Source of the DNA: a virus
Lineage: Duplodnaviria; Caudoviricetes
DNA: 64,000 nucleotides
Reading direction: 5' to 3' (one strand)
Virus record (IMG/VR): IMGVR_UViG_2930369814_000001
Coordinates: 22,768 to 86,767 of that record
A program made the translations under genes and the position numbers. Below are positions 9,949 to 50,802 of this stretch, in pieces (position 1 is the stretch's first letter; each line of letters begins with the position of its first letter). The notes beneath the pieces are model-generated. The model was not told where the DNA came from, did not search any database, and saw nothing but the letters and a program-made list of their open reading frames with translations.

Positions 9949-10189
9949 CGCCGCGACGGTCGTACAGCGGGGAGCGCCGCTTCAGGTCGTTGCGCAGCAG
10001 GCATGCCTCGATGTCGCCGCGGTCCGGCCGGTCGAAGAAGCCCCGCAGCCGGACCACGGCGAAGTCACGGAGGCCCTCAATCCGCCTCAGCGAGCCGGCG
10101 TACAGGCACTGCTGCTGCGGGATGCCTTGAAGCCGGGCCCACGCCTGCGCCTCGTCCTGACTGCCCGCACAGACGACGTACTTGATCAC
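9938..10189 (-). CDS. Hypothetical protein between terS and terL
   Basis: Compact ORF filling the gap; start uncertain. Confidence 0.55.
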   Translation of the reverse strand: MIKYVVCAGSQDEAQAWARLQGIPQQQCLYAGSLRRIEGLRDFAVVRLRGFFDRPDRGDIEACLLRNDLKRRSPLYDRRGDGD

Positions 10190-10628: not shown

Positions 10629-10734
10629 GACGACCTCCAGGGTCAGAGCGCGCCACCGGGGCGCACGGGCAGATGAAGGAACCCGCAGCGAGGGCGCCAC
10701 CAGGACGCCCCGGAGGTTCCACGAACTAGCAGGT

Positions 10735-23386: not shown

Positions 23387-26300
23387 TCACTTCTCTATGG
23401 CGGGCGATTCTCCAGCTCCCTCGCAGCGTTGTCCGCGCCGGGGGTCGACGATGCTGGTGCGGACGTTGCCGTGGTGGCCGATCTTGCCGGTTATGGTCAG
23501 GCTGATCGTGCGGCGGCAGACGGGGCAGGTTCCGTGCGGCGGCATGGTCGCTCCTCACTTCTCGGTGACGCGGTCGGCGGCCGTCACAGCGCGGGCGAGT
23601 GCCAGCGCGTCCTTGATTGTGCTCGGCTCGTCTCCGACCGCCCTGGCGTACACAGCAGAAGAACGCAGCAGCTTCGCCACCGCCTGGCCAAGCTCGGGGC
23701 TGATCGTGTCACTGTCGAGTTGGAGGGTCGCAGCGGCGCCGTCGGCCAACTCCTGCGACACCTGCTCCTTGTGACTCCTGGTTTGCATGGTCGGTCCTCA
23801 CTTCTCGGTGGCGCGGTCGCCTCGGATGATGGCGAGGCAGTCCGTGCACCAGCGCTCTCCCGGCTTGTCCAGTCGCAGCGGCACATCCTGCTTGGGTCCC
23901 GGTGCGACGATGCCCTCCGTGTCGCTGCACGCGATGGAGTGGAAGTCGCATTGTCCGTCGCAGCGGCCGACGGACTTGTGCCAGACCAGGACCGTATTGC
24001 CGCCCTCGGTCCGGACTCGCTCCTGTGTTGCCAGCATGGTCGATCTCCTCAATTCGTGTCTGCGTGCGTGATGCCGATGGCGGCGATGTCGCCCCGGCTG
24101 AGCTGGTACCGGCATCCGTCGGCCTCGGCGGTGATCCCACCAGCACCCGCTTCGGTGATCTCGTAGACGCGGGTCTGGTTCCAGCGCAGCCCCGCGCGCG
24201 GGAACCGCACCCGGTCCCCCGCCTCGTACCGCTGGCCGCCGATCTCGAACACGGGCTCAGCGTCCCCGGCCTCGGCATGCTCGGTCCAGTACTGGCGGTC
24301 GGCTGCTGCCGCCTCGGCCGGGGACTCCTCCCACCAATCAGCAGCCGCCACGGCGGTCACGGTGTCATCTCCGCAAGCCTCCGCAGCATGGCCGTCTGGT
24401 CACCGCTACTGGTGACCCAGGCACCGCCAGGCCCGTAGGCGGTGGTCCGGCTGGGCAGGTGCCGCTGGTTGTGCCCGTCGGGCGGGATCAGCAGCGAGCC
24501 CCGGAACGCGGCGTCGTCCGGCTGCGTGCCCTTGTAGAGGCAGAGCCGGAGGGCGCCGAGACGATCGACGCCGAGGACCAGGACGTGCCCGGCCGGGGTT
24601 GTGGAGTCGGCACCGGTCCAGCGGACGTTCAGGTCGGCAAGCTTGATCGCGGTCACGACGGCTCCTGCGGGATGTCGGATGCGTGGACGGTTTCGAAGTG
24701 CCACCAGCGTCCGCCTTCCCACTGCATGACCTTCGCCGTGTCGGCACCGGCCCGAAGCGCGGTCCGCACGTGCTCGAACGCCTTGGCCTCGCTGGTGTGC
24801 TCGGTCTCGGCAAGCTGGATACCGCCCTGGGTGAGGATCACCCGCCACGGCTTACGCGGCTTCACGGTCATCGGTTCTCCTTGGTGGCGTGCTCGGCGTT
24901 CTTCCGGTCGGCGATCGTCTGGGCGCCCCGGCGGGTGAAGCACGCTTCCGCCGGGGACTCCTCCCACCAGTCGGCAGCCGTCACGGCAGTCACGACGGCT
25001 CCTTCCTGGTCACCCAGCGCTGCCATGCGGCGAGCCCGGCGATGGCGGCCTTCTCGCGGGTAAGTTCGGGGCGGTTGAGTGTCCGGGCGCCGTCGGCCAG
25101 CCACCACGTCCACCCGTTACGCCCGGTGCGGGACACGCCGCCGTAGGAGGGCTCGATAACGAGCAGTCGACGGTCACCCGAGACGACGTACCAGCGGCGC
25201 GTCTCGGACCAGGTAGGAGCCTTCACAATCTCGGCGGCCTCGACGATGGCGCGGGCTGCTGTCGCGGACAGGCGGCGGGGCATCAGTCGTCGTCCTGCAC
25301 GTAGGCGTTGACGGCCTTGTCCCGGGCTGCCCTGTCACGGAAGCCCTCCACCCTCACGTCACCTTCGGTGTACAGGGCGAGGCCATACAGGCTGCGCTCG
25401 TCGTCGTTGAAGTGGGCAACGACCTGGTAGGGCCAGTCTCCGAGGAGACGCCCGTCGGCCTTTCCAGCGACCTCATGCCAGCCCGTGCCCTCGCTGCGCA
25501 TGCGCTCGATCCAGTCGTAGCCGCTGTCGCACGTCTCGGTGTCGGGCAGTTCGGGCAGCAGGTCGACGGCTACGGCTTCGTACATCTCCTCGGGGGTCAC
25601 TGGATTGCCTCCCGGGCGTCGGCGGCGGCGCGTGCGTTGTCGGCGGCGTAGCGGCGGTGGGCGGCGGCGGCATTGGGCTGGCCGGCGGTGTCGGCTTCCG
25701 TCGCGGCTTCCAGGCGCAGGGCGGCGGCCTTCTCATACATGGCGATCATCTGCTGACGGTCGGCGTGGTTAAGCATTGATGGCTCCTATCGGATCAGGGT
25801 TGGGATGTCGGCCCACCGCACGGTGAGCCCCGGCCGCGGGTGCAGGTCAGAAGAACTCACCGTCGTACAGCTCGTAGCCCTCGGCGTCGACGATCTCGCC
25901 CGGTCGGGTGGCGCCGCGGATGCCGAATCGGGCCTTACGCGGCCAGCCGCGCGCATCGGTGCGCTCGACGATGGTCATGCCCATCTCCTGTGCGCTGACC
26001 TCGTAGCCAGACTCGGCGCGGATCGTGACGTCGAGCCGGAACAGGAGCTCCTTCCAGGCCGCGAAGCTGGTCAGGCCCAGGTCGGGGTGAGCCCGCAGCA
26101 GGAAGCGGTGCACCGAGGCGCGCTGGCCGATGTGAATGCCCTCTCCACTCGCCTCCCCACCGGGAAAGGGGCCGAAGGCGTAGTAGTTGGTGGACATGTG
26201 ATCTCTCCTATCGATGGAGGTCGGGCAGGTTGCGCCAGCGGACGACGAGCCCGGGGTTGTGTGCGGCGAGGGTCTTGTTGGCGACCCGGAGTCGGGCTTC

Positions 26301-26483
26301 GAGGAGCTGCCGGGCTTCGGCGTACTGGGGGCCGCGGCAGGCGGCGTACAGGCGGGCCGCCTCCGCAGCATCCGCCACCGCCGCTTGGACCCGGGCCGGA
26401 AGCTGGCGGCCAGCGAGCAGGGCCACCGCGTCCGGTACCGGAACCTCGACCTGCACCCTTGCGATCACCTCAACCACCTCCAT
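23387..26483 (-). other. Operon of about 12 small hypothetical genes (23387-23545, 23555-23788, 23798-24037, 24049-24360, 24357-24656, 24653-24871, 24868-24993, 24990-25283, 25283-25600, 25597-25776, 25847-26197, 26208-26483)
   Basis: Tightly coupled ORFs with GGAG RBSs; some starts approximate. Confidence 0.65.
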
Positions 26484-26486
26484 GCT

Positions 26487-26565
26487 GTCTATTTTCTAGA
26501 CAACAGCATGACAGCGAACGGCGCCACCGTCTACGACTTAGACAGAAGTCGTCTAGGAAACAGAC
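26487..26565. promoter_or_regulatory. Triple operator GTCTA-N5-(T/C)AGAC in divergent promoter region
   Basis: Copies at 26487, 26529, 26551. Confidence 0.7.
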
Positions 26566-26589
26566 AGCAGCCGTGAGACCATCCACCAC

Positions 26590-26820
26590 ATGACCGATTG
26601 GGAGAAGCAGCTCGGCAAGCGGGCAGCAGCAGTTGAGCGCGCCAAAGCCGCACTCAACGCCGACATTGCAGCAGCACGCCTCGACGGTCACTCATTCCGC
26701 GAAATCGGCGGCTGGGCAGACGTCAACCACGAACGGGCCCGCACCATCTGCATCCGCATCAACGGCGACTCCCGCACGCGCGAAGAGCAGGGCCCAGCAG
26801 CAACCGAGGAACCCCAGTGA
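26590..26820 (+). CDS. Small HTH regulator
   Basis: ARLDGHSFREIGGWADVNHERAR. Confidence 0.75.
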   Translation: MTDWEKQLGKRAAAVERAKAALNADIAAARLDGHSFREIGGWADVNHERARTICIRINGDSRTREEQGPAATEEPQ

Positions 26821-27007
26821 CCGCGATCTACCTCCCCGACTCCGGCAGCCTCCCGCCATGGGTGGGCATCGTGGTCGCCGTGGTGGTGGTGCCGCTACTC
26901 GCCTACCGGGCCTACCGGCTGTGGCGGGCATGGCGACGACGCCGATAGCCGCACGCAATGAAGGCCCCGCACCGGAGCGATCCGGGCGGGGCCTTCATTG
27001 CGTGCGG

Positions 27008-27394
27008 CTACGGTCCGGTCGACGCGGCCGCGGACTCCATCGCCTCACGTATCGCGTCCTCGAACACCTTCTCCGCCTCCGGGCTATCGAGGTACGCCTC
27101 CATGACCTCGCCCGCGATCCGCTCCATCGTCGCCTTGTCGAGCCCGTAACAGGCGACCGGCGCAGGCAGGGACTCACCGTCGGGGCCATCGGCCGTGGCC
27201 TTCGCCATGTTCTCTCGGAGCCCGTCCCGGCACGCGGTCTCACTCGCGACCGGCTCACCCCCGTCATCCAGGAGGACGGCGAGGCCACCGCCGACAGCGA
27301 ACGCCGCGAGGGCGGCGCCAACCGTCCAGGCGGCGAACCGGCCCCAGCGCGGCCGAGCCGGCGGCGGCGGTGGGTAGGCGGGCGGCTGACTCAT
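27008..27394 (-). CDS. Membrane-anchored protein
   Basis: Pro-rich N-terminus, one TM helix, two Cys. Confidence 0.65.
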   Translation of the reverse strand: MSQPPAYPPPPPARPRWGRFAAWTVGAALAAFAVGGGLAVLLDDGGEPVASETACRDGLRENMAKATADGPDGESLPAPVACYGLDKATMERIAGEVMEAYLDSPEAEKVFEDAIREAMESAAASTGP

Positions 27395-27528
27395 GGTTCC
27401 CCCAGGGGCTTGGCGCGTGGATGAATGATGGCCGCTTGTGGAGGCGGCGCGAAGGCGGAGTCACTGTTCCGTAACCCGAATCGGCGGAACCACCGTCGCC
27501 GGACTGACGGGCGGGGCAGACTGCTGCC

Positions 27529-27720
27529 ATGGCGATCCGGGTGAGCGTCCAGGCCGACAACGAGGACGAGTGCGTCGAAGGCCTCGCCCGCCTGGTCGAC
27601 GCCGGGTTCCAGCCGGTGATGATGCCCCGGTACATGACGGACGGCCGATGGATGGCGCGCGCAGTACCCACGGCGAAGGCCCCGGCCACTGACGACCGGG
27701 GCCCTGCCGTAGCCGGTTGA
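27529..27720 (+). CDS. Hypothetical protein
   Basis: MAIRVSVQAD...GRWMARA. Confidence 0.55.
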   Translation: MAIRVSVQADNEDECVEGLARLVDAGFQPVMMPRYMTDGRWMARAVPTAKAPATDDRGPAVAG

Positions 27721-30549
27721 TCAGGCGACCATGTCCCGGTATTCGTCGGCCATCTCCGGCACGATCTTCAGCAGGACAGCGGCGCGACGTAGCAGCCTGC
27801 CCTTTGCCCCGCGGTCGGTCTCGGCCGCGCCTTCGAGGAGCAGAGTGCTGGCGGCCTCCAGGTCGTCGGATCCGGTGATGCCCGACTTGTCGCAGCGGTC
27901 GCCAGCGTAGGCCAGCTGCCGGGTGAAGTCGGCGAGGCCGATGGCCGGGGTGGGCTCGTCGGCGATGTAGGCGACAGCAGCCGCGTGCTCGCAGATGAGA
28001 CTGTCGACGGTGATCGTGCTGGTGGGCATCGGCGTCACCGGCCTGCGTTGTTGACGAGCCATTGCCCGTACCGGCGGTCGGCCTCGGCGCTCAGCTCGTG
28101 CATGTTGCAGCCGGCGGCCTTGGCCTTGTCGATGGCGGGCACGACCTTGCGGTGTGCGGGGTCGTTGGTGCGTCCGGCACGGTCGGCTTTCTGCGAGGCG
28201 ATGATCGCCTGTATCGCGGCCTCACGGGCCTGTGCGGCGTTCGACATGCGGGTCTCCTGGGTGGTGGTCAGCCGCGGCGGGGGTAGCCGTGGCCGGTGGG
28301 CGGATAGGTGTGGGGTCGCCTGCGACGCCGAAGAGGATGACTTCTTCGAAGTCGGGGTCGTGGTATTGGGCGCCCGCCTCCGTCGTCGAAGGCGGCGTCT
28401 ACCGCGTCGAGGAGGGCGTGGGTGCGGCGCTTGTCGTCGTCTGCGGTCTCGCGGCGGAAGCTCACGGGCGCTTCCCGATGGCGCTGGGCTGGGACACGGG
28501 CTCTCCTATCGGGTGGGCACGTGCTTCTGGTTGGGGTGTGGGTATGGGGCTCAGCACTCGTGGAGCGAGTAGCTGACGAGGACGACATCCTTGGCGGACA
28601 CCTTGAAATCGTGTGCCGCTCGGGTGCGGAGTTCTTCGAGCAGGAGCCCCACGGTGGCTCCGCGCGGCGGCACGTAGGCACCGGTGTGCGTCCTGCCTTC
28701 GTTGTAGCCGGACTTCGCCGGTCCCTTGATGAACGTGGCCGAGTACTGGTATCGCGCCGCGGTGAGCGGCGTGCTGAGGTTGCCGTAGTCGGGCATGGGT
28801 TCTCCTATCGGTGGTTGGTGTGGGCGTGGTGGGTGGCGCGGTCGAAGGCGGCGAGGACGGGCCCGACGCTGGTCTGCTGGGCGTTCCACGACGGGATCGT
28901 CTCGGCGTGGGCGAACTCGCCCTGGATGGCGTCGAGGAGTGCGACGCACGCGTCGTGGGCGAGGTCCCGGTCGCCGCGAGCTTCGAGCCGGATCGCCCGG
29001 ATCGGGCAGACAGCGCCCGCCTCGTCGAACACCGCGTCCCGGCACCAGCCGTCGGTCTCGATCCGCAGCCGCGCCCGGTACAGCAGGTCGGCGAGCGGCG
29101 TCCGGTACGGGCTGGGTGCGGCGGCCGGCGCGGGCAGGGGCGCCTCCACGATGTGCGGGATGGGGTCGGCGCCGGGCAGGTGCGCCGTGTTCACCTCGAA
29201 CGCGACCGCGGCCTGGTCCAGGCGGACCGTCATCGCCGCGTCGACCAGGGCCAGTCGGGCGTCCAGGTCGAGGACGGGCGAGACGGCGGCCCGGGCGCGG
29301 AGGGCGGTACTCATGATCGCGCCTTGCCGTTGTCGCACTTCTCGGGGCAGCGCACCCGGCGCTGAACACCGCCGAACGCGGTGAACAGGACGCCGTTGCC
29401 GGTGCAGCACCAGCACAGGCCGCGGGCTTGGGCCTGCTCGGGTGAGAGGCTGCCGTTCTGCGCCTCCCACTCCTGGTCGGTCATCTTTCGGGGCATGATG
29501 AAGGTCTCCTCGTCGATCTTCTTGGTGGGCGTGGGGACCGGGGCGCCCCTGGTCGCTGCCAGGCATTCGAGGGGCGCCCCGGGCGTAGCTACAGGTCTTC
29601 GCCGAAGCGGACAGTCATCGTGGCTTCGAGGAGTTCGGCGGCCTCGCTGCCGTCGGTGGTGCGAGTGTCGAAGCGGGCCGTGACCTCACGGATGATCCGG
29701 TCGGTGGTCTTGCGGTCGCCGCGCTTCTTCGCTGCGACATAGTCCTTCACGGACTGGTGGGTGTACTGCACGGTGATCTCCTTCGGTTGGGATGGGTCAG
29801 CAGTCGGGGCAGGCGTCGTCGCCGGTGCACTGGTCGGCGTGGCGGCAGTCGTCGTTGCAGTACGGCCAGCCGCCCGGGGCGCCGCAGAGGCGGCACTCGT
29901 TCTCCATACCGGGACTCCTTGATCAGTCGGTGATGTCGAAGACGAGGCCGCTGGGCGCGATGGTGACCGTGGCGCCGCAGTCGCAGGTGTAGTCGCGGTA
30001 TCCGCGGTCCCGATCCTTGCCGGTCATGTCCTCGCCGCAGCAGACGGGGATGTCGTCGCGATCGGTGTCGGCGCCGATGCTGAGTTCGTAGCCGTAGCTG
30101 GTGGTGGGCACTGGTTCTCCTTCGGTTGGGGTGGGTCAGACGCGCCAGATGCCGGGGCGCCGCCGGGTGCGCGGGTTCGAGGTCTGCCGGGCCTGCTTCT
30201 CCAGGCCGCGCAGCTCGTCCTCATCGAGCAGGCCCTCGTAGTCGTCGGAGCCGAGGGGGCCGGCGACCTGGGGGGCGCGGTCGCCGATGTAGCGGGCACC
30301 CCGGGGTGGCTCGGTGTAGACGGTGCCGCAGTTGCTCAGCAGGCTGGTCGGCGAGTAGTGGCCGGTGGTCCAGTTGGCGCTGCCCCAGGAGCGGTCGTTG
30401 AAGGTGTGCGCGTTGTAGACACGCTCGGATCCGAGGCCCCAGTCGCGGCCTTCGGCGACCGTGTACACGGTGGTGCCCTTGCCATGCCGGTTCAGGTAGC
30501 GGGTGAGGTCCCTGGCGCCCTTCTTCGTGGGCTCGAACGTCTCAGACAT
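27721..30549 (-). other. Small-gene operon downstream of traB (27721-28029, 28035-28247, 28551-28796, 29311-29496, 29589-29771, 29797-29907, 29923-30111, 30136-30549)
   Basis: Compact ORFs with strong RBSs, several Cys-rich. Confidence 0.6.
28805..29314 (-). CDS. DUF6197-like protein
   Basis: IETDGWCR...CPIRAI...IPSWN motif. Confidence 0.6.
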   Translation of the reverse strand: MSTALRARAAVSPVLDLDARLALVDAAMTVRLDQAAVAFEVNTAHLPGADPIPHIVEAPLPAPAAAPSPYRTPLADLLYRARLRIETDGWCRDAVFDEAGAVCPIRAIRLEARGDRDLAHDACVALLDAIQGEFAHAETIPSWNAQQTSVGPVLAAFDRATHHAHTNHR

Positions 30550-30729
30550 GGGTTGATCTCCGTTTCTGGTTTGTGGTGGTTTACACCCAGACTGGTGCAC
30601 CTTTTGTGCGACTATGGGCGTCGGATGGCGGTCGGACACGGGGCGGGCCGTCCCTGGGTCCGGCCCGCCCTCCGTCCGCGCAATGACCAGCGGACTAAAG
30701 GGGGCGAATCACCCCCATGTCCGGGCTAT

Positions 30730-32925
30730 CTAGGCGCCTTCGAGGAACTGGAGGGCGTCGGCGATGGGTGCCCGGCGGTAGCCGTTCACCCGGCCGCGCC
30801 CCTCGATGACGACCTTCACAGTGGAACCAGCGCCCGCCGCACGCAGTAGCTCACCCAGTCGGTCCGCAGTCATGGACTCGCCGATGAGCTCGGCCATCTC
30901 GTCGAGCTGGGCCACGTCGCGGCCGAGGTCGTTCATGGCGATCAGGCAGCCCCGGCAGGCGTCCATCTGCATGCGCTGCTCGGGCGTCATCTGCAGGACG
31001 TTCCGGCCCGGCACGCCATCCCGCTTGGGTCCGCCGGCCACCGAGGACAGGCCGGTGGTGTTGAGGAGGTGCTTCTCGATCGGGTCGTCCCACTGCCCTG
31101 CCAGTCGTCCCGCGCCCTCGCGGATCTTCGCGGCCTTCTCCAGCAGCATCGTGATCTCGCCGCGCTCGTCCTCGTCCAGGTCGAACGATCGGGCGAGGTC
31201 GGTGACTCCGGCGAAGGGGTTGACGAGCCAGCCGAAGCCGGGCCGCGGCGGATCGAACTTGGAGGCGTCGCGCCCGGCGCTGGCCTGTCCGCCGCCGAGG
31301 ATCGCGTTGGACTGGGTGGCGTTCTCCACCCGCATCGCCCACCGGGCACCACAGTTCATGGCCAGGGCCTGCGGGATGACGTCCGCCTCCGGGTACTGGG
31401 TGATCAGCACCATGAGGATTCCGGCGCCCGCCGCGACCGCGGACAGTTCGATCAGCGCCTCCAGGATCTCGTCACGCAGCGGCTTCCCGGGCCGCGTGTA
31501 GGTGGCCAACTCATCGATGACCAGGAGTTCGATGCCGCCGATCTGCTCGATGACGGGTCCGACCAGCTTGGACTTGCCCAGTGCGCCCAGGTCCCGTTCA
31601 CGGCGATCCTTGTCCGCAAGGAGTGCCTGGAGCAGGGCCAAGAGCCGTTCGGGGTTGGGCTTGAAGTAGGTGGAGGCGACGCCCGTCTTGGCGTAGGGGT
31701 CCCACTCGCCGTTGTTCTTCCCGGCCACGATCCGCAGGTTGATCCGCGGGTCGAACGAGGTGCCGACGACCAGGTTGGACGCGCCGACGCCCTTGCCGGA
31801 GCGGGTCATGCCGGCGATGACGTAGGACTGGTTGTTGATCGCGAGGCGGATGGTGATGCCGCGCTTGTTCCAGGCGACGGGCACACCGTCCTTGAACGCG
31901 TCGAGCTGGGACGGCGCCTTGATCAGCGGGGAGGGCCGGGTGTCCTCGAACGCGTCCTGGTCGGTGAGCCACAGGGAGGCGCGGGCCTCCGTACCGGCCT
32001 TGGTCACGTCGACCATGGACACGTCCCGGCCGAGCGCCCCGGCGAGCTTGGGCAGCTTCTTCTTCAGCTCGGCGACGGTCGTCCGCGGCGGCAGGTCGAA
32101 GACAACGGTGGTGTTGCCGTCCTTCTCCCGCTGCGGCACGGCCAGGATCTGAATCTTCTCTTCGCCGCGGATCTCGCCGATCGCACGGAGGGCATCCTCC
32201 AACTGTTCGACGGTGAGAGCGGGCGGGGGCGGGGCGTTGAACTCACGCTGCCCCGGCTGGAACTCCTGCTTCGCCAGGTTGACCACCGCGGAGGCCAGCG
32301 GCTGCTCCCCCATGTTCGGGGCAGGTGCAGGCTGGCCTGCGTCGAAAGGGCGGGACACGAGGTACCAGCCGTAGCCGGCGGCGGTGCCCAGGGCAGCGAG
32401 GAGCATGGGCTGACCGGTGGCGGCCTGCTCGATGGTGGCGCCGAGGAGCGGCATGGCCGCAAGACCTCCCCCGGCGAGGACTGCGGCGCGGCCAGCCTTC
32501 TTGCCGCTGCGCGCGGCGTTGACCTCGCGGTCGGTGGGCGGCAGCACGATCGTGGTTTGCAGCGCCGCCAGCTTGGCTTCCTCTTGGGCGGCGCGCCCGC
32601 CGAGGCTGGACAGGGTGCCCGCGCTGACGTTGCCCTCGTTCTCGGCCTGCATCTTGGCGTGGGCGAGACGCCCGTGGGCTTCGGCGACGATCCGCTGCTG
32701 GTGGGCGACCTTCTCGGCGTGCTTGCGCTGCTTCTTGAGGGTGGCGGCCTGAATGATGTCGACCTGGTCCAGGTCGTTCCCGGCCAGCCAGTCCCGGGTG
32801 CGGGCGACGGCGTGCTTCCGCTGCTCGGCGAACGCGGCCTTCATCCGGGTGGTACGCGGGACGGTGGGCGGGTCAGTGGGCTTGGGCGGGATCTGCTGCT
32901 CGACGGGCTCGATCTCGGTGGCCAC
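30730..32925 (-). CDS. FtsK/SpoIIIE-family DNA translocase, TraB-like conjugative transfer protein
   Basis: Two TM segments, IAGMTRSGKG Walker A, LLVIDELATY Walker B, LITQYP, C-terminal wHTH-like region ending NGYRR. Confidence 0.85.
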   Translation of the reverse strand: MATEIEPVEQQIPPKPTDPPTVPRTTRMKAAFAEQRKHAVARTRDWLAGNDLDQVDIIQAATLKKQRKHAEKVAHQQRIVAEAHGRLAHAKMQAENEGNVSAGTLSSLGGRAAQEEAKLAALQTTIVLPPTDREVNAARSGKKAGRAAVLAGGGLAAMPLLGATIEQAATGQPMLLAALGTAAGYGWYLVSRPFDAGQPAPAPNMGEQPLASAVVNLAKQEFQPGQREFNAPPPPALTVEQLEDALRAIGEIRGEEKIQILAVPQREKDGNTTVVFDLPPRTTVAELKKKLPKLAGALGRDVSMVDVTKAGTEARASLWLTDQDAFEDTRPSPLIKAPSQLDAFKDGVPVAWNKRGITIRLAINNQSYVIAGMTRSGKGVGASNLVVGTSFDPRINLRIVAGKNNGEWDPYAKTGVASTYFKPNPERLLALLQALLADKDRRERDLGALGKSKLVGPVIEQIGGIELLVIDELATYTRPGKPLRDEILEALIELSAVAAGAGILMVLITQYPEADVIPQALAMNCGARWAMRVENATQSNAILGGGQASAGRDASKFDPPRPGFGWLVNPFAGVTDLARSFDLDEDERGEITMLLEKAAKIREGAGRLAGQWDDPIEKHLLNTTGLSSVAGGPKRDGVPGRNVLQMTPEQRMQMDACRGCLIAMNDLGRDVAQLDEMAELIGESMTADRLGELLRAAGAGSTVKVVIEGRGRVNGYRRAPIADALQFLEGA

Positions 32926-32986
32926 AGGGCCTGTCCTTCCAGATCGGGGGCGGGGCCCCGGTTGGGGCCCCGCGGGGTGGGGTGGC

Positions 32987-33457
32987 TTAGAGGCCGCCGA
33001 GGACGCCGCCGAGGGAGCCGACGACGGAGTTGGTGAGCTGGTCGCCCATCGCGCCGACGACCGTTCCGGCGAGAGCGATGCCGAGGAGGGACACGACGAC
33101 GGCGTCTCCGGCCTTCATGTGGCCTCCCTTGACGCGGAAGAACACGACGGTGCCGAGCAGCAGGATGGCGACGACACCGGCACCGATCGCGCCGCCAGAC
33201 GCCTGGGTCTGGTACTGCTGCTGCGTCCCGGCCGGCGCCTGCTGCTGCGGGTTGGTGAGCTGCGCGCCCGTCCCACCGTCGGGGGTCAACCCGTTGGTGA
33301 TGCCGTCGCTGCTGCCGGGTTCGGTGTCGGTGCGGGCGATGGCGAGGACGGTCGCCTCCTGCTCGACGGTGGCCGCGTCGGCGGTGGCGGCGGCTCCTCC
33401 AAGGAGGGCGACGGTGGCGGTCGTGGAGACGGCGATCCGGCGAAGCGTGGCGTTCAT
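32987..33457 (-). CDS. Secreted/membrane protein of the transfer module
   Basis: Signal-like N-terminus plus two C-terminal TM helices. Confidence 0.7.
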   Translation of the reverse strand: MNATLRRIAVSTTATVALLGGAAATADAATVEQEATVLAIARTDTEPGSSDGITNGLTPDGGTGAQLTNPQQQAPAGTQQQYQTQASGGAIGAGVVAILLLGTVVFFRVKGGHMKAGDAVVVSLLGIALAGTVVGAMGDQLTNSVVGSLGGVLGGL

Positions 33458-33481
33458 AGTTTGATCACTCCAGAGGGTGCG

Positions 33482-34804
33482 TTAGTTGGCAGTCGGGCTG
33501 GCGTTCTTGGCGGCGGACTCGGTCCGCTCGGTGCGTGCTTGCGCGCGGGCGATCGGGTGGTTCGGAGCGCTGTCGCCGGCCCGCCGGGTGGGCGGTGTGC
33601 CGCCGTTGTTTCGGCGCCCGTCGGGGGCGTTCGGGTCCTTCTTCGCGCGAGGGGGTCGTTGGGAATTGATCTGCGACAACGACCCGAGAACGGGGGCTTC
33701 GGTGACGGTCCGCATGTGGGCCTGCGCGGCGCGCGACTGGGCTTCGATTTCGGGGCGGATGCCGACCTTGGTGCAGCCCGTCACGAGAACCCACGCCTCG
33801 GCCCAGATCTGCTCCGTGACGTACTGCGAGCCGCGGGCGGAGCGGAGGGCGTCGGCGACCTCCCACACGTCGGGGTGCCGGTTCTTGCGATCGTCGTCGC
33901 GCCGCTTCTGATCCTCCGCGGCGCGGGCATCCGCCGCGGCCTTGTCGGCTGCAGCACGGGCGTCGGCGGCCTGCTTCTCGGCGCGCGCCTTCTCCCGCTC
34001 CTGCAGCTGCCGCTCCTGCTCCCGCTCGGCGGCGCGACGCTCCCGCCACGACGGGATGCCGTCGGCCTTCTGCGCGATGCCGTGCTCGTAGGCCATGAGG
34101 ACGATGGGCCCGCCGAGCGAGGCGATGGCCCCGATCAGTCCGGCGTTGAAACCGATGTGATCGTTGGTCAGCCCGCCGTGCAGGTTGATCGCGGCGGCGA
34201 TCGCCGCGGACAGCATGATGCCGATCCGGTACGGGGCGACATCCCGCCGGTGAGCGACTGCCCACGCGGCGCCGAACGCCAGCACCAGGGCGAGACCTTC
34301 GAGGAGGGCCGGCGCGGCGATGAGGAAGGGGCGCTCACGGTCCCAGAAGTGCATGAACTGCACGGGCGCGGCGATGATCAGACCGACGGCGTAGATGCCG
34401 CGGGCGCCCCACTTCCACCAGCGCTCGGACCGCTCCTGCTCGGCCAGCACCTGCGCCTCGGCGGCCTCCTCGTCGGCGGCAGCCTTCTCCGCCTTCTCCT
34501 TCTTGGCCTGCGACTCGGCGGCCTCCGCGGCCTTCTTCGCGACGTATGCCTTGTGGTCGGCCTGGTCCTTCTCCAGCCGCATGCGCTTGCGCTCGTTACT
34601 GATGCGCAGCTCTTCGGCCTGCTCGCTGGCGAGGATCTCGGCGGCCTTGGCGTCTCCCTCCGCCTTGATGCGGGCGGCTTCGGCTTCGGCTTCGGCGCGT
34701 TTCCTGATCGCCTCCGCCTCGGCCAGCGCCACCGGGTCGAACCGGGGCTCGGGCGAGGCAACGGCGCGGCCGTTGACCTGCTTCTCGACGGATACGGCGG
34801 TCAC
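33482..34804 (-). CDS. Spd-like (DUF2637/SpdB2-like) multi-TM coiled-coil protein
   Basis: Coiled coil, about 4 TM helices (APALLEGLAL, AAAINLHGG), coiled coil; upstream of traB. Confidence 0.6.
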   Translation of the reverse strand: MTAVSVEKQVNGRAVASPEPRFDPVALAEAEAIRKRAEAEAEAARIKAEGDAKAAEILASEQAEELRISNERKRMRLEKDQADHKAYVAKKAAEAAESQAKKEKAEKAAADEEAAEAQVLAEQERSERWWKWGARGIYAVGLIIAAPVQFMHFWDRERPFLIAAPALLEGLALVLAFGAAWAVAHRRDVAPYRIGIMLSAAIAAAINLHGGLTNDHIGFNAGLIGAIASLGGPIVLMAYEHGIAQKADGIPSWRERRAAEREQERQLQEREKARAEKQAADARAAADKAAADARAAEDQKRRDDDRKNRHPDVWEVADALRSARGSQYVTEQIWAEAWVLVTGCTKVGIRPEIEAQSRAAQAHMRTVTEAPVLGSLSQINSQRPPRAKKDPNAPDGRRNNGGTPPTRRAGDSAPNHPIARAQARTERTESAAKNASPTAN

Positions 34805-35000
34805 GGTGATCGGTGTCCTTCCAGATCGTTGGTGGAGGGTCGGGGTCAGCAGGCGGGGGTCTAGCGGGCGTGCCGGTCGAAGCGTGTTCGGGCGCGCGGC
34901 GGCCTGGTGGCTGCGATGACGAACGGTGTCAGGACGATCGCGATCACTGTCATGGCGACAGCGATGCAGCTCATGACGAGGTTGAAGTCGCTCACGGTGG

Positions 35001-35201
35001 TCAGTCCTCTCGGTTGCGGCGGCGGGTGGTGCGGTAGCCGAACGGGCCGGGCAGGTCGTAGCTGGTGGTGGTCTGGCCGGTGCTGGACCAGGTGCGTTTG
35101 GGCCCGCCCTTGGGGCCGACGGTGATCGACCAGGACCGGCGGTTGATGTTGATGCGGACGCCGGGCAGGATCCGGAAGCTCTTGCGAAACGTGATCGGCA
35201 T
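35001..35201 (-). CDS. DUF4236 domain protein
   Basis: ITFRKSFRILPGVRININRRSWSITVG...LPGPFGYR. Confidence 0.8.
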   Translation of the reverse strand: MPITFRKSFRILPGVRININRRSWSITVGPKGGPKRTWSSTGQTTTSYDLPGPFGYRTTRRRNRED

Positions 35202-35386
35202 CAGTCCTCCACGTCGATGAAGCGGAACGCGGCGAACGCGTGCGCCTGCGGGTCGGCGGTGGCGTTGACGATGCGGTCGGCCTCGTCGATGTCACCGCGG
35301 TTGACGGCGTCAGCGGCACGACGGGCCACAGCCAAGTCGACGGCGACAGTCGGGGCGGGCTTGGGGCGGCGGCGGAACAGGCTCAT
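35201..35386 (-). CDS. Hypothetical protein
   Basis: Coupled ORF. Confidence 0.6.
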   Translation of the reverse strand: MSLFRRRPKPAPTVAVDLAVARRAADAVNRGDIDEADRIVNATADPQAHAFAAFRFIDVED

Positions 35387-35422
35387 GTGGATGTCCTTCG
35401 CGGCTGGTCCGGGGCGGTGAGG

Positions 35423-35851
35423 TCAGACGGCGTCGGCAGCCGCGAGGGTGTCGGCCACGATCTGGCTGTGGTCGAAGGCGAGCGGCGGCAGGGCGTCCAG
35501 GGGCCACCACTCGGCACGCACGGCGTCGTCACCTGCCGTGATGGGCGTTCCGGGGATGACGAGCAGGTGGTAGGCGACGGTGACGTACCGACCGCGCGGG
35601 TCCCGGTCGGGCGCGTCGTACACGCCGACCTGGTCCAGTTCCGCCTCGGTCGCGTACAGGCCGGCCTCTTCGGCCAGCTCGCGGGCGGCGGCGGCGCGGG
35701 AGGTCTCGCCGGGGTCGACGTGCCCGCCAGGCAACGCCCACTTCCCCTTGTGCGGGTCCCAGCCGCGCTCGATCAGCAGGACGCGCCCGTCGGTGGTGGT
35801 GACGACGGTGTCGGCGGTGTAGCGGATGGTCTCGAACGTCTCGGCGCTCAT
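35423..35851 (-). CDS. Nudix hydrolase
   Basis: WALPGGHVDPGETSRAAAARELAEEAGL; DRDPRG; LAFDH. Confidence 0.92.
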   Translation of the reverse strand: MSAETFETIRYTADTVVTTTDGRVLLIERGWDPHKGKWALPGGHVDPGETSRAAAARELAEEAGLYATEAELDQVGVYDAPDRDPRGRYVTVAYHLLVIPGTPITAGDDAVRAEWWPLDALPPLAFDHSQIVADTLAAADAV

Positions 35852-35905
35852 ATCGGCCTCTCAGATTGGTGATCAGGCGCGGTGGGTGGTGTGCGCCCCG
35901 GCGGT

Positions 35906-36058
35906 CTAGGACTGCCTGTGGCATCCGCAGTGGCACGGAGCGCAGCAGCAGGGGGCCGAGGTCTTCTCGGCTTCCGCCTCGGCCAGCACCCTCCGCGCGA
36001 CCCCGGTCGCCACGAACAGGGCGCCGACGACGGCAATCGCCACCAGCAGGCCCCACAT
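35906..36058 (-). CDS. Small membrane protein with Cys/His tail
   Basis: Manual translation MWGLLVAIAVVGALFVATG...CCCAPCHCGCHRQS. Confidence 0.5.
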   Translation of the reverse strand: MWGLLVAIAVVGALFVATGVARRVLAEAEAEKTSAPCCCAPCHCGCHRQS

Positions 36059-37785
36059 CAGGCGGCGGCCGGGTAGTCGAAGCCGTCCAGCTCGGCAACC
36101 AGGTCGGCGTCCAGCCCGGCCGCGTAGTCACGGACGGCGGCCATCCGGGCCGAGTCGCCGGACTGGCGGGCATCGGCGTACTCGGCGAACAGATCGGCGA
36201 TCGACACGGTCAGCGCGTCGGCGACGCTGGTGACCGTGCGGGCCTTCAGCCCGATCTCGGTGGAACCCAAGTCGGCGGAGATCAGGAACGGAGACATCGG
36301 GATGGCCCTCTCAGGGTCAGCGGAACGTGGGATGGGGGTCAGGCGGTGGGGCGGGGCGCGCGGCGGCACTTGCCGGCGTGCCGTTCGGCAAGGCGGTGAG
36401 CGGCGGGCGGGTAGTAGGCGTGGCCGTCACCGAAGCCGCAGCCCGAACAGCGGACGCGGACGCACTCGCCGTCGTCCGTCAGGTCGACGTTGCCGCCGCC
36501 GACGGTCCGGTAGCGGGCGACAACACCCTCCGGCCAAGCGGACTGGGTGGAAGCAGGCATGGGGGTACTCCTCAGCTGGTCAGACAGGGCTCGGGTGGGA
36601 TGCCGCGGAGGCGGGACGGGGGTTGGACACCGCCCCCGCGGCGGCTTGGGGCCCTACTTGGGCCGGTTGGAGGACTGCCGGTTGGCGTCCTTGACCTTCT
36701 GGCGGAGCGCCTCGCGCTCGGCGTCCGTCACGACGCGTCCGGTACGGCGTGCAGGCGTCGGGTGCGGCCCGACGGCTGAGGCTTGGCCTGCGACAGGGGC
36801 GCCGCGGTGGCCGGGACGAACCAGTGGCTGATCCGCGTCTGGGTCTCTGGGTCGGTGAACGTGACCAGCAGCTTCGGCGACTCGCCGTCCCAGGCGGGCA
36901 GCCCGGCCACGATGCGCTCAGTCGTCGCCCGCAACAGCTCCCGACGCTCCCACTCCGTCACGACACACGCTCCGGCAGGTAGGCGCCGCCGTCACGGTGG
37001 GCGTAGGCGGTGATCGCGCCAGGCTCGTAGGGCTGACGGACGATCGCCATCAGGTCGTCCGGCCACCAGCCGAGGAACACCTCGTCGACCGCGGCCTCCA
37101 GCTCCAGGCTGGGATCCGGCCCGTTCACGACTCGACCCTCACGACCAGGAACCGGTCACTGTCGAGGTCCATCGTCACGGTGACGGACTGGCCCTGCGCC
37201 GTCAGCTCGGCCACCTTCTCCTCCGCCGGCCAGCTGCCGCGGGGACCGCCAGCCGGGAAGTCGGCAAGGATCTCGCGGGCGGTCACGACGCACCGCCGAT
37301 CAGGTCGAGCTGTCCGGCCGCCGTCAGAACGCGGACGGAGTCGGCCATCGTGTCCTGGGCCAGCGCGAGACTTTCGAACTCGGCGCCCGACATCGGACAC
37401 CCGAGACCGGTCAGCTCCTTGTAGCGGGCGGACGCCACCTCGTACCGGGTCACGGCACGCTGCACGTCGAAGGCAGCCATCACGCACCGCCGATCAGCTT
37501 GAGCTGGCCAGCCTTGGCGAGGACCGCGTGCGCGGCGGCCATGACGTCCTCGGCGTCGGCCAACGACCGGGCGTCCAAGTCCGACATGCGCCCGGACTCG
37601 GCAAGGCCGGCGAGCTGTGCGGCGTGCACGGCAGCCGTCTCGTACTCGGCGACCGCCTGCACCAGCGGGAAGTGCGGCAGGACGCGGGCCAGCGCGGCAG
37701 CCGACTTCGGCGGCAGCGGGGCGGTCGGCGTTGCGACCGCGTGGTCGGCGCGCTTCTGCGCACCGATAAGATCGGTGGTAGCCAA
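36058..37785 (-). other. Small genes at the head of the transfer operon (36058-36297, 36339-36560, 36728-36961, 37125-37286, 37283-37480, 37480-37785)
   Basis: Coupled ORFs. Confidence 0.6.
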
Positions 37786-37914
37786 CGTGGTCTCCTAGTC
37801 AGAACCTGTTGGTGAGGGCCGGCCTGCGAGGTGAGAGTCGCGGTGTCCGGCCCGTCTTCTTTTGTGCGCTGCCCGCGGACTGGGTCCGGTGAGAGTGGAC
37901 AACGGTGACGCCGT

Positions 37915-37935
37915 CTTCTAGGTGACACCTAGAAG
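37915..37935. promoter_or_regulatory. Palindromic operator CTTCTAGGTG-A-CACCTAGAAG
   Basis: Perfect 10-bp inverted repeat between divergent genes. Confidence 0.7.
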
Positions 37936-38038
37936 GCTTGGTAAGACCGTAGAGGGCTGCCGGTGACGAGTCAAGCGCCCAACACAACGTTTCTAGCTGA
38001 GGCTTGAGGGGGCGTCGGATCGCCCGTACTCTCGCTTC

Positions 38039-38293
38039 ATGGCCGACTCTCCCGACACTCCCTTCACCCGCTACGACGAGCAGCTCCGCGCGATCAGTGA
38101 CCTGGACGAGCGTTGGGCCAAGTACCTCGAGCTGGCCGAGCACCTCGACACCGAACTGGAACTGTGGCGACGCAGGCAGCGGCAGGAGATCGCCCTCGGC
38201 TACCGGGGCGAAGGGAAGACCTGGAAGGAGATCGGCAAGGCGATGGGAGACGTTTCGTTCCAACGTGCCTTCCAGTACGGCAAGGGCGAATGA
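38039..38293 (+). CDS. Small HTH repressor
   Basis: GKTWKEIGKAMGDVSFQRAFQY. Confidence 0.75.
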   Translation: MADSPDTPFTRYDEQLRAISDLDERWAKYLELAEHLDTELELWRRRQRQEIALGYRGEGKTWKEIGKAMGDVSFQRAFQYGKGE

Positions 38294-38442
38294 CCGGGGC
38301 TTCATGGGAGCAAGTCTTCGCGTGCGGGCACGCCCGGACCATGAAGATCCCATGCAGCACCATGCAGTGACCTGAAGCCGGACCTGCAGCCGCATGCAGG
38401 ACCGGCACGAGATGGACCACAAACGCGGCCAAGGAGCCGATA

Positions 38443-39081
38443 GTGGCAGACGTCCAACAGTGGACCGGGGAGAAAGCCGCCCGGCTCCAAGACGCATTCG
38501 AGATGACCCAGGAAGAGTTCGCGGGGAAGCTCGGGGTGTCGGTTCGCAGCGTCGCCTCATGGCGCGCGAACCCGCGAATGGTGCCCCAGCCGGACACGCA
38601 GCGAATCCTGGACACGACTTACAGAATGGCAGGTGATGCGGTGCGCCGGCGGTTCATCCATTTGTCGCGGATAGCGGCCCCCCAGCCGGAGGCGCAGGCC
38701 TTGCGGGTGGCGATCGCGGTGGTCCGCCGGGGAGGTGACGTGCTGCTCGTGTGCAGGCAGGACGGTGACGACATCGCCTGGCAGTTCCCGGCCGGCATCG
38801 TCAAGCCCGGCGGCAGCGCATCGAAGGTGGCGGTGCGGGAAACGCTGGACGAAACCGGCGTCCACTGCCTGGTCCGCGAACACCTGGGCGAACGCCTTCA
38901 CCCTGTGACACGCGCACTCTGCGACTACTTCATCTGCGACTACGTGCACGGCGAGGCGGTCAATGGGGATTCCTCCGAGAACGTCGCCGTGGCCTGGGCT
39001 CCGATAGCGGAACTCGCCCGATTCATCCCGACCGACCGCATCTACCCGCCGATCCTCAACGCCTTGGAGGCGACCGTATGA
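38443..39081 (+). CDS. XRE-family HTH-Nudix fusion
   Basis: MTQEEFAGKLGVSVRSVASW plus QFPAGIVKPGG...AVRETLDETGV. Confidence 0.85.
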   Translation: MADVQQWTGEKAARLQDAFEMTQEEFAGKLGVSVRSVASWRANPRMVPQPDTQRILDTTYRMAGDAVRRRFIHLSRIAAPQPEAQALRVAIAVVRRGGDVLLVCRQDGDDIAWQFPAGIVKPGGSASKVAVRETLDETGVHCLVREHLGERLHPVTRALCDYFICDYVHGEAVNGDSSENVAVAWAPIAELARFIPTDRIYPPILNALEATV

Positions 39082-39491
39082 CGACCGAGACCACCACAGA
39101 GAAGCCCGGCATCTCCGCCGCCATCATCGTCCAGGACGGCCGGGTGCTCATGGTCCGCCGCCGAATCTCCGAGGGCGAGCTGATGTGGCAGTTCCCCGCT
39201 GGCGCCATCGAGGACGGGGAGGCCGCAGAGGAGGCGGCGGTGCGCGAGACGGCCGAGGAGACCGGCCTGGTCGTCACCGCGGCAAAGCTGCTCGGCGAGC
39301 GCGTCCACCCGAAGACAGGCCGGCTGATGTCGTACACGGCGTGCGAGCCGGTGCAGGGCGAGGCCCGGGTCGCGGACGAGGACGAGCTGGACGCGGTCGC
39401 CTGGGTCGCCCACTCGGAGATCAGCGACTACGTGCCCTACGGACTGTTCGGGCCGGTACAGGAGTACCTCGACGACGTTCTGCCGCACTGA
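39078..39491 (+). CDS. Nudix hydrolase
   Basis: WQFPAGAIEDGEAAEEAAVRETAEETGL. Confidence 0.92.
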   Translation: MTTETTTEKPGISAAIIVQDGRVLMVRRRISEGELMWQFPAGAIEDGEAAEEAAVRETAEETGLVVTAAKLLGERVHPKTGRLMSYTACEPVQGEARVADEDELDAVAWVAHSEISDYVPYGLFGPVQEYLDDVLPH

Positions 39492-50185: not shown

Positions 50186-50802
50186 GCGGCGGCCCCCTGA
50201 CGGCGGTCGCGGCCCTCGAGGAGGACGATGCTGTTGCCGCACATCTCCGCCAGGCGCGAGGCGACCCGCGGCCCCGTCACCTCCGACAGCTGGTTCGGCA
50301 GCACATCGCACGTGATGATCACCGGGCGGCGGCGGATGTACCGCTCGTCAAAGATCTCGAACAGCCGCTCCTGCGTCCACGTCGACGGGCGGGCCGCAGC
50401 CAGATCGTCGATAAACAGCAGATCGACCTTCTGCAGCTGCTTCGACAGCGTCCGCCCCTCCCCCTCCGGGGCGTCCGGGCGCAGTGCATCGAACAGCGCC
50501 GTCGACCGGAACGTCTTGATCACTGGCGAGCCCTGCCACGGCTGGCCCGGCCCGTACTGGGCCTCCAGCCAACGGCGGCACGTCTTCCACGCCGTGTGCG
50601 TCTTACCGACACCGATCGCGCCCGTCAGGAACAGGGACCGGCCACCCCAGCCGGCGATCCAGTCCTGCACCTGGGCGGGCAGGTCGATCGGTCGGCGGTA
50701 GATCTCCGGGGTCTCGTCGTCGAACCGGTTCAGCGCCACCGAGGTGCGCTCCAGAAGGAACGACTCGCGGGGGCTGAGCTCGTCAGCGGAACTGGAGGAC
50801 AC
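50182..50802 (-). CDS. DnaC/IstB-like helicase loader ATPase
   Basis: GAIGVGKT, LLFIDDL, IFDERY, RVASRL. Confidence 0.9.
   Translation of the reverse strand: MSSSSADELSPRESFLLERTSVALNRFDDETPEIYRRPIDLPAQVQDWIAGWGGRSLFLTGAIGVGKTHTAWKTCRRWLEAQYGPGQPWQGSPVIKTFRSTALFDALRPDAPEGEGRTLSKQLQKVDLLFIDDLAAARPSTWTQERLFEIFDERYIRRRPVIITCDVLPNQLSEVTGPRVASRLAEMCGNSIVLLEGRDRRQGAAA

Follow-up and report, generated by a model that had tools for sequence, protein, structure and literature searches.

The systems most similar to the locus described here are the TraB-clt-Spd systems for transfer of double-stranded DNA (dsDNA) of the Streptomyces plasmids pSVH1, pSG5, pZL1 and other large plasmids, in which clt consists of direct 8-bp repeats that are recognised by the cognate TraB, and in which SpdB2, a pore-forming spreading protein, combines an N-terminal coiled coil with about four transmembrane (TM) helices (PMC4447253). 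A locus of this type was encountered in a window of 64,000 nucleotides, which represents bases 22768-86767 of the 86,767-bp virus record IMGVR_UViG_2930369814_000001, where it is located between the early and the late genes of a tailed phage (Table 1). As in these plasmids, there is a full-length TraB-like protein with a predicted membrane region, a motor and a winged helix, accompanied by an SpdB2/DUF2637-like gene and a small open reading frame (ORF) upstream, an operon head composed of small ORFs, and a divergent regulator region; as in pSVH1, repeats follow directly after traB. The locus differs from the plasmid systems by its presence in an 86.8-kb tailed-phage genome, by the lack of a plasmid Rep and by a regulator that is not of the GntR type. 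Further differences from the pSVH1, pSG5 and pZL1 loci are the Nudix and DUF4236 genes inside the operon and an identity to pSVH1 TraB of only about 29%. We consider it fairly probable that the region is a Streptomyces-type TraB/Spd/clt module for dsDNA translocation, that a lineage of temperate tailed Streptomyces phages inherits it as an integral component, and that it would serve capsid-free transfer or spreading of DNA.

The element also has features in common with integrative and conjugative elements of actinomycetes (AICEs) such as pSAM2, SLP1 and pMEA300, which share chromosomal integration, a TraB/Tra translocase, and Spd-like and Nudix genes with it (PMC3218068, PMC2440964). Surveys of AICEs require the presence of int, rep and tra, and treat prophages as confounders (PMC3218068). 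This combination was not found here, the replication genes of the window being of phage type (DnaB, DnaC-like, beta clamp, RecT/YqaJ). AICEs are 9-24 kb in size, and as compared to them the window carries about 40 kb of virion and other phage functions.

SpdB2 homologues are present on the actinophages phiC31 and VWB, and Thoma et al. (2015) proposed that such homologues might help phage DNA to spread (PMC4447253). For these two phages SpdB2 alone was reported, whereas the window adds a TraB motor and a clt-like array. A characterised transfer locus also exists on the plasmid-phage pZL12 (PMC3583192, PMC4487206). This plasmid is circular and autonomous and carries ParAB, whereas the relative of the window element is integrated in the chromosome. 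The partition genes that serve as a criterion for phage-plasmids of the pZL12/P1 type were not found, no ParA or ParB being present among the ORFs of the record that were scanned with Pfam and PHROG (148 in the window and 19 in the rest of the record). The plasmid-phage pZL12/phiZL12 of Streptomyces was reportedly described by Zhong et al. in 2010 (J Bacteriol 192:3747). The idea of a phage with a transfer system is less new than the sequence-only reading of this DNA implied, as it is preceded by the pZL12 transfer locus and by the suggestion of Thoma et al. In reviews of plasmid mobility and phage-plasmids, virions and conjugation are treated as alternatives and CONJscan-type searches seek a mating-pair-formation apparatus and a relaxase; the relevant passages of these reviews make no mention of TraB-bearing phages (PMC12282955, PMC7969092). 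A literature search with TraB in combination with prophage and Streptomyces terms gave no description of a TraB-bearing prophage.

The TraB-like translocase

On sequence grounds, the 731-aa product of the traB-like gene is a full-length dsDNA translocase of the TraB family, of which the translocation itself is predicted. A hidden Markov model (HMM) that was built from eight plasmid TraBs only, including those of pSVH1, pSG5 and pZL1, matched the protein with 413.7 bits, with HMM positions 171-768 corresponding to residues 122-725, and its Walker A variant GKG is common to the plasmid TraB consensus. The FtsK and EccC proteins of one Streptomyces genome match only the core of this model (HMM positions ~385-597). 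FtsK/SpoIIIE and TcpA, the coupling protein of pCW3, have the same motor fold as the window protein, the sequence similarity being confined to the ATPase core.

In a tree calculated with IQ-TREE from 231 ATPase columns and 38 rows, with an outgroup taken from one genome and with TcpA and SffA not sampled by name, all TraB-like rows formed one clade (support 98/97) against FtsK, EccC and a 657-aa paralogue. The window protein thus falls outside FtsK and EccC (TcpA is not in the tree). The proteins of pSVH1 and pSG5 branch first in the TraB clade, and that of the window belongs to a 100/100 subclade of 24 rows, which comprises 22 rows from virus records and genome loci, the plasmid CP042280 and the genome locus L053. 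Grouping of the ATPase within TraB clades had been set beforehand as a test in the sequence-only reading, and both the tree and the plasmid-only HMM place it there. With tblastn, TraB relatives were detected in 67 plasmid records, 58 of which are from Streptomyces; the identity was 28.9% to pSVH1 TraB (E 2e-20) and 42.6% to pZL1 TraB (E 5e-73), and pSG5 was matched as well.

The FtsK-type ATPase that had been recognised from the letters alone was found again with independent methods, namely in a match to phrog_1358 (FtsK/SpoIIIE-like, 3.3e-28), in a match to FtsK from the PDB (2IUU, 1.2e-4) in which the Walker A (GMTRSGKG) and Walker B (LLVIDE) motifs are aligned, and in a Foldseek comparison of an AlphaFold2 (AF2) model with the FtsK motor (1.8e-14) and with TcpA (8.3e-14). 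The model, which was based on 76 homologues, had a predicted local distance difference test (pLDDT) score of 86.6, and residues G377, K378 and E472 are invariant in these homologues. The C-terminal domain (residues 636-731, 96 residues) was modelled with a pLDDT of 84.7 and the topology H-b-H-H-b-b. Its top Foldseek neighbours are nearly all winged-helix proteins, which together with this topology bears out the C-terminal winged helix-turn-helix (HTH) region that had been proposed earlier, and in the HMM alignment the domain aligns with the C-terminus of plasmid TraBs.

Candidate docking repeats behind traB

The region directly after the traB stop codon contains five CGGAC cores, at 30633, 30658, 30674, 30691 and 30719 (span 30633-30723), where 1.06 would be expected (P 0.005), and an 18-nt inverted repeat at 30633-30678. 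The array, which had escaped the sequence-only reading, became apparent when the 160 bp that follow the traB stop codon were compared side by side for the window and 22 relatives, together 23 non-redundant loci that all have TraB by construction. The relatives carry arrays of CCCGGAC(A/G), in both orientations, after traB. Where 2.2 copies of CCCGGAC would be expected from the rest of each locus, the 250 bp behind traB contain 75 in total over the 23 loci, 16 of which have at least three; the degenerate array of the window is shared with its closest relative. A control with pSVH1 showed that five out of seven GACCCGGA copies are located within ~110 bp after traB, and other plasmids have repeated words of their own at this position. 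In the window, GACCCGGA occurs eight times, with 6.6 expected, and does not cluster; exact and one-mismatch scans of the whole record revealed no 8-mer cluster near traB, and a literature search for GACCCGGA returned primer matches only. The post-traB array fits the published description of clt, and can be regarded as a candidate docking site.

There are suggestive indications that the repeat word co-varies with residues in the wing of TraB. The wing is RVN in 19 loci, in which C(C)GGAC repeats are present, and deviant wings are paired with deviant words in L040 (RTT/TAGGAC), L015 (R-G/CCGGAA) and L012 (QVR/GGTGGA). Since the tree sisters of L040, L015 and L012 keep RVN and CCGGAC, these are three independent contrasts.

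The SpdB2-like protein and the order of the operon

The 440-aa protein encoded directly upstream of traB has the coiled coil and the TM block that, together with this position, characterise SpdB2, in agreement with the multi-TM coiled-coil protein of the sequence-only reading. Hydropathy analysis gave hydrophobic segments at residues 158-185, 194-212 and 217-239, and both ends of the protein carry charged repeats. When used as a tblastn query, the protein matched DUF2637 genes upstream of plasmid traB genes in CP108486 (1.7e-8), CP075612 (1.6e-5), CP042280 (2.5e-5), CP107769 (4.5e-5) and pZL1 (0.006). The corresponding BLASTP values were 3e-5 for the pZL1 DUF2637 protein and 0.046 for SpdB2 of pSVH1, and UniRef gives the name DUF2637 to three close homologues. 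The gene for the 156-aa small membrane protein, which was recovered with the expected hydropathy, lies between the SpdB2-like gene and traB, a position occupied by small ORFs in pSVH1, pSG5 and pZL1. The order in plasmid tra regions, which is a divergent GntR gene, two to six small ORFs, a DUF2637/SpdB2 gene (409-533 aa), one to three small ORFs, TraB, and proteins of ~170-200 aa, is also the gene order of the window. Homologues of spdB3, spd79 or downstream spd genes were not detected in the window.

Phage context and conservation of the module

The genes of the window have the layout of a temperate siphovirus, which is read leftward from the early genes through the TraB region to the late genes. 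Nearly all are on the minus strand according to frame analysis based on G+C at third codon positions (GC3), and the composition is homogeneous, with a G+C content of ~70%. According to the Pfam and PHROG assignments, the early region also contains HNH and C5 methylase genes, two DNA methylase genes are present near the TraB region (Pfam), and a portal gene is found among the late genes. The part of the record to the left of the window encodes the tape measure, minor tail proteins, a tyrosine integrase, a TROVE protein, Ku and a GntR regulator. The characteristics of a tailed temperate phage are present in the form of TerS, TerL, portal, major capsid protein, tail tube and tape measure, as well as integrated and terminal-repeat relatives, and the head, tail and packaging genes are intact ORFs with 45-88% aa identity to relatives. 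No lysin was identified among the genes of the record by family searches and searches with relatives.

At least in the relative G015, the element is an integrated prophage of ~87 kb, because positions 331-86765 of the record are collinear with C10:163814-248776 of the G015 genome, where host genes flank the element, and because an identical TraB protein sits on a 414,375-bp contig. The left flank in G015 contains genes for transketolase, glucose-6-phosphate dehydrogenase, phosphoglucose isomerase and a TetR regulator, and the right flank genes for a major facilitator superfamily transporter, a beta-lactamase-family protein and GTP cyclohydrolase II. The start of the record with an ATG and its end at a stop codon also led us to consider a rotated circular plasmid, which was rejected since G015 has the same linear order with host flanks. 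The tyrosine integrase gene (record 8920-10026), at ~43 kb from the TraB module, is missing in G015, the element of which carries a small serine recombinase instead. Several TraB relatives are located on contigs of 83-94 kb, and an extrachromosomal state is possible.

The phage lineage is widespread in Streptomyces genomes, with 355 relatives at E <= 1e-3; none of the best 120 has an identity below 67%. In the 23 loci full-length ORFs are kept, with 62-98% identity, and the neighbours are in fixed order. The SpdB2-like gene is directly upstream of traB in 19 loci and the 167-aa gene directly downstream of it in 14; the 156-aa gene is found in 13 loci, at the position that it has in the window, and the DUF6197 gene in 15. 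Nudix-type genes are found less regularly (the operon Nudix in 6 loci, the HTH-Nudix gene in 9 and the Nudix gene at 39078-39491 in 10), as are the leader ORFs 37283-37483 (8 loci) and 36058-36369 (7 loci), and DUF4236 occurs in only 2. Ten IMG/VR records contain a TraB relative (seven proviruses, one record with terminal repeats and two linear ones), and seven of these ten also have a TerL relative. When five genomes were inspected, TerL was at ~18-20 kb from traB in three, on another contig in one, and not found with this query in one.

The virion genes next to the module vary among relatives. The 62,809-bp contig G008, which has 123-bp terminal repeats and a CheckV completeness of 100, encodes a virion module with 59-80% aa identity in the block from TerS to the tail tube and 40% in the tape measure, next to a TraB that is 69% identical; DnaB, DnaC, an SpdB2-like gene and the HTH-Nudix/Nudix pair are also present. 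In G001 the early region and the TraB module are 93% identical and are combined with other virion genes, tail-gene homologues being present, and in G004 the TraB module is found beside other head genes. A search for capsid and TerL-nuclease families with PF05065 and PF20441 in G001, G002, G005, CP042280 and pZL1 gave a match only in G002, to an HK97-type capsid protein. No rep or int gene accompanied the module among ORFs scanned at 20-45 kb with Pfam and PHROG, and no RepSA, RepAM or Prim-Pol was present among the 148 + 19 ORFs of the record, so that the absence of a Rep, an integrase and att sites of its own, as stated in the sequence-only reading, holds for the surroundings of the module.

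A further comparison is offered by CP108705 (NZ_CP108705.1), an 88-kb circular Streptomyces plasmid with a virion module that corresponds in full to that of the window (45-88% aa). ParAB, ERF and a type III polyketide synthase gene are present on it, and TraB is replaced by a P-loop protein of 717 aa (GAQGSGKT); the plasmid gave no match to the TraB HMM, and the 717-aa protein has no similarity to TraB. On the basis of ParAB, the polyketide synthase gene and the phage operon, we take CP108705 to be a pZL12/pSLE1-like plasmid, and its pattern suggests that modules are exchanged between phage-plasmids and phages that integrate. A PhiNon1-like region of Nonomuraea, with a TerL of 39% identity, had no TraB-HMM match in the 50 kb that were examined. 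Because the module recurs in related loci beside different virion modules, including that of G008, it is to be regarded as a mosaic but stably inherited phage module, belonging to the core of the phage and not to a nested AICE. The survey of related prophages thus agrees with the earlier proposal that the module, located between early and late genes, is part of the phage.

Regulatory region and Nudix genes

The sequence-only reading placed a divergent HTH gene with a palindromic operator at the head of the operon. The 84-aa ORF at 38039-38293 (+) exists and the palindrome in the intergenic region 37786-38038 is perfect, but the ORF matches no family in Pfam, PHROG or NCBIfam. The core pattern TCTAGGTGNCACCTAGA, with up to three mismatches allowed, is found once in the window, where 0.08 matches would be expected. 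The ORF is followed by a gene for an HTH_3+NUDIX fusion (38443-39081, +) and a NUDIX gene (39078-39491, +), both assigned with Pfam, which brings the number of Nudix genes in the region to three. The analogy with a Kor-type repressor, which had also been drawn, was not sustained, the regulator not being GntR.

Pif is a Nudix immunity factor (PMC3218068), and a gene with HTH and Nudix parts is present on a Streptomyces integrative and conjugative element (PMC9513070). By analogy, a Pif-like function of the Nudix genes may be envisaged.

Possible role of the TraB module

If the plasmid systems are taken as a guide, the HTH_3-Nudix fusion, the 84-aa protein or both would repress the leftward operon at the 21-bp palindrome. 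After relief of this repression, and with the prophage in the form of a circle that has been excised or is replicating, TraB could assemble into a hexameric pore in the membrane. With the winged helix at its C-terminus it would dock on the repeats of the CGGAC type behind its own gene, and it could then pump the unprocessed dsDNA circle across septal cross-walls or into an adjacent hypha. Within the mycelium of the recipient, spreading would be supported by the small membrane proteins and the SpdB2-like pore protein, and the Nudix proteins might, like Pif of pSAM2, block redundant transfer between lysogens. In this way a phage would gain two routes of spread, by virions and by capsid-free transfer. 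A capsid-free route has an analogue in the movement proteins of plant viruses. The extension of this proposal to the whole phage lineage, which would then move its genome as naked dsDNA via TraB, SpdB2 and clt through cross-walls or into neighbouring hyphae in addition to producing virions, with possible mobilisation of host DNA via clt-like words in the chromosome, should be seen as tentative.

Several observations weigh against the proposed transfer module or against parts of it. A search of 50,697 phage records gave only five weak TraB matches, each covering 11% of the query, and as none of the sequenced phage isolates in this collection carries a close relative, virion production by these elements is itself presumed. 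When the leftmost 16 kb of the record were compared with everything from 40 kb onwards, and one flank of the G015 element with the other, no att repeat of at least 18 nt emerged. The 731-aa protein has no Pfam match at E <= 0.01, its score with Pfam FtsK_SpoIIIE (PF01580) being 14.2 bits with a cut-off of 24, and it reaches 24.5 bits with NCBIfam plasmid_TraB (NF041214), for which the cut-off is 800. These missed cut-offs carry no information here, because the experimentally studied TraB of pSVH1 also fails the NF041214 model (41 bits), as does that of pSG5 (32.8), and pZL1 TraB has 23.5 bits with PF01580. The membrane anchoring claimed in the sequence-only reading finds weak support in a single marginal hydrophobic stretch (residues 147-165) and low-pLDDT helices at 132-190, and the Foldseek E-values for the winged helix are weak as well (0.06-0.3, best 0.057). 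The 440-aa protein is without a match to Pfam DUF2637 (PF10935) at E <= 5, which is also the case for SpdB2 of pSVH1. There is no GntR-type TraR/KorA gene beside the operon, the only GntR gene being at record 1-246. Finally, the array of the window is degenerate, with one exact CCCGGAC (P 0.077), and the co-variation of wing and repeat word comprises three contrasts only.

It is possible, if unlikely, that the role of the system is a vertical one, in which TraB and SpdB2 distribute phage or prophage DNA among the compartments and spores of the same mycelium, following infection or while in a plasmid-like state, and not between mycelia, so that the set would be a device for segregation and spreading. 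Spreading within the mycelium is likewise driven by TraB and the Spd proteins in the case of pSVH1, and CP108705, with the same virion genes, has ParAB and no TraB, whereas the record has no ParAB among its scanned ORFs. However, intermycelial transfer is performed by plasmid TraB as well (PMC4447253), partition is not required for the relative in G015, which is integrated, and Pif-like Nudix genes make most sense if DNA is transferred from cell to cell. We regard it as quite improbable that the element is no longer, or not mainly, a working phage but a large integrative and conjugative element that has retained phage-derived structural genes and for which TraB is the real means of transfer. 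The intact head, tail and packaging ORFs, with their similarity to relatives, argue against such an element, as do the terminal repeats and CheckV completeness of G008 and the evolution of structural modules as intact mosaics, even though the lack of close TraB relatives among phage records, the origin of all close relatives from proviruses, genome loci or metagenome contigs, and a record size of 57-87 kb with much accessory cargo (Ku, TROVE, methylases) would be compatible with it.

A recent nested insertion, or a decaying AICE or plasmid transfer remnant carried as passive cargo, might explain why the closest non-phage relatives are plasmid genes, such as those of CP042280 (55-60%), and why the module is absent from CP108705 in spite of the shared virion genes. 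Such an origin is very improbable in view of the homogeneous composition, the lack of an own int, rep or att, the full-length ORFs and fixed neighbour order in the 23 loci, the conservation of cis repeats that co-vary with the protein, and the separate 100/100 clade formed by phage-borne TraB genes. Equally little probability is assigned to a motor for superinfection exclusion, defence or host takeover, which could, for example, expel incoming DNA or block it. Full-length homology to transfer proteins, an SpdB2-like partner and a self-linked docking array are hallmarks of a system that moves its own DNA, which is difficult to reconcile with a defence role, for which one could cite the classification of phrog_1358 under 'moron, auxiliary metabolic gene and host takeover' and the three Nudix and two DNA methylase genes nearby.

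It is customary to classify mobile elements by the way in which they are transferred, in virions or by conjugation. The region is a case, at the level of sequence, of a phage lineage with a full actinomycete dsDNA-transfer kit that includes a candidate docking site. If the proposed transfer indeed takes place, it would change the view of prophage spread, of host range, as no receptor would be needed, and of chromosome mobilisation in antibiotic-producing streptomycetes. A working kit would also offer a natural test bed for TraB-clt specificity, with the pairs RVN/CCGGAC, RTT/TAGGAC and R-G/CCGGAA.

Other genes and sequence features

The remaining genes of the leftward unit are listed in Table 1. 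The DUF4236 and Nudix genes were confirmed by family matches, and the 167-aa ORF has no Pfam, PHROG or NCBIfam match. The left edge of the module, which was earlier put at 26208, has to be moved, as the hairpin at 26946-27010 probably ends the leftward operon and the gene at 26208-26483 would then be a separate unit. Upstream of this gene, beyond the terminator, a TCTAG-rich 22-nt inverted repeat (86% complementary) is present at 26483-26569 and is possibly a second operator. The ribosome-binding regions of the neighbouring ORFs 29589-29771 and 29923-30111 are covered by a direct repeat of 24 nt (96%), at 29777-29800 and 30116-30139.

Table 1 Features of the TraB region and selected phage genes in the window
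Feature	Position	Strand	Remarks
Tail tube, late	1104-1859		Pfam/PHROG
Major capsid protein, late	4322-5317		Pfam/PHROG
TerL, late	8203-9948		Pfam/PHROG
TerS, late	10191-10700		Pfam/PHROG
Putative terminator	26946-27010		Perfect 25-nt inverted repeat, 15-nt loop, 100% complementary
Distal part of leftward unit	27008-30111	-	DUF6197 at 28805-29566 (PF19698, 7.4e-18); small ORFs 27008-27394, 27721-28062, 29589-29771, 29923-30111
Gene downstream of traB	30136-30549	-	Likely start ATG 30549 behind GGAG; longest ORF 167 aa from GTG 30639
clt-like repeat region	30550-30729	-	Directly after traB stop; CGGAC cores and inverted repeat
traB-like gene	30730-32925	-	731 aa; predicted FtsK-type dsDNA translocase with C-terminal winged helix, predicted membrane-associated
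Small membrane protein	32987-33457	-	156 aa; signal-like N-terminus and two TM segments (hydropathy)
SpdB2/DUF2637-like gene	33482-34804	-	440 aa; coiled-coil ends, central block of 3-4 TM segments
DUF4236 small protein	35001-35201	-	PF14020, 7.8e-16
Nudix hydrolase in leftward operon	35423-35851	-	PF00293, 6.9e-25; Pif-like candidate
Small leader ORFs, operon head	35906-37785	-	Including 36058-36369, 36728-36961, 36958-37128, 37283-37483, 37480-37785; no families; GC3-supported
Palindrome, candidate operator	37914-37934		21-bp perfect, CTTCTAGGTGACACCTAGAAG
Divergent rightward genes	38039-39491	+	Candidate regulator/immunity genes (Pfam)
DnaB	48821-50311		Pfam/PHROG
DnaC-like	50182-50802		Pfam/PHROG
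RecT	55681-56496		Pfam/PHROG
YqaJ exonuclease	56496-57827		Pfam/PHROG
Beta clamp, early	57803-58930		Pfam/PHROG
HTH regulators, early	62874-63394		Pfam/PHROG

In the early region, four tandem copies of the 7-bp unit AGCAGGG are located at 51182-51210, inside the gene 50783-51646, which closely precedes the genes for the DnaC-like protein and DnaB; these could be origin iterons inside an initiator gene. Between the gene 55111-55482 and recT there is an intergenic tract of ~136 nt (55508-55643) that consists almost completely of G and C runs and has G10C10 palindromes twice. A contig of run X1, which is possibly the source sample, spans this tract with 47 nt instead of 136, so that its length is unreliable and part of it may have arisen as an artefact of the assembly.

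The left arm of the prophage encodes a Ku-domain protein (PF02735, 1.5e-42; record 4494-5786) and a TROVE/Ro60-like protein (record 6790-8469). The latter gene is followed by an RNA at record 8491-8595 that was called tRNA-Val(cac) by ARAGORN. A role of this sequence as an attB remnant beside the integrase was considered and rejected, as it matches the Rfam family YrlA (Y RNA-like; 42.3 bits, E 5.9e-8, which is less than the gathering score of 69) and no Rfam tRNA. The TROVE gene and the YrlA-like RNA look like an Rsr-Y RNA pair of the prophage, and are kept in G015 with 79% nucleotide identity. All five copies of GGTACCCA, the core of the palindrome GTGGGTACCCAC, in the record are located within ~60 bp (record 1613-1673), and this operator-like array separates the divergent genes 1320-1571 (-) and 1685-1966 (+, weak HTH).

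A tail-fibre-like ORF and the gene for a beta-helix protein resembling tail spikes (868 aa; phrog_2234 at 1.9e-66) are located at window positions 16695-19675, upstream of the terminase genes and far from the other tail genes. A family-4 glycosyltransferase gene (window 3294-4322) is located between the gene for the major capsid protein and the head-tail connector genes, and its position is conserved in relatives (57-70% aa), which suggests that virion proteins are glycosylated.

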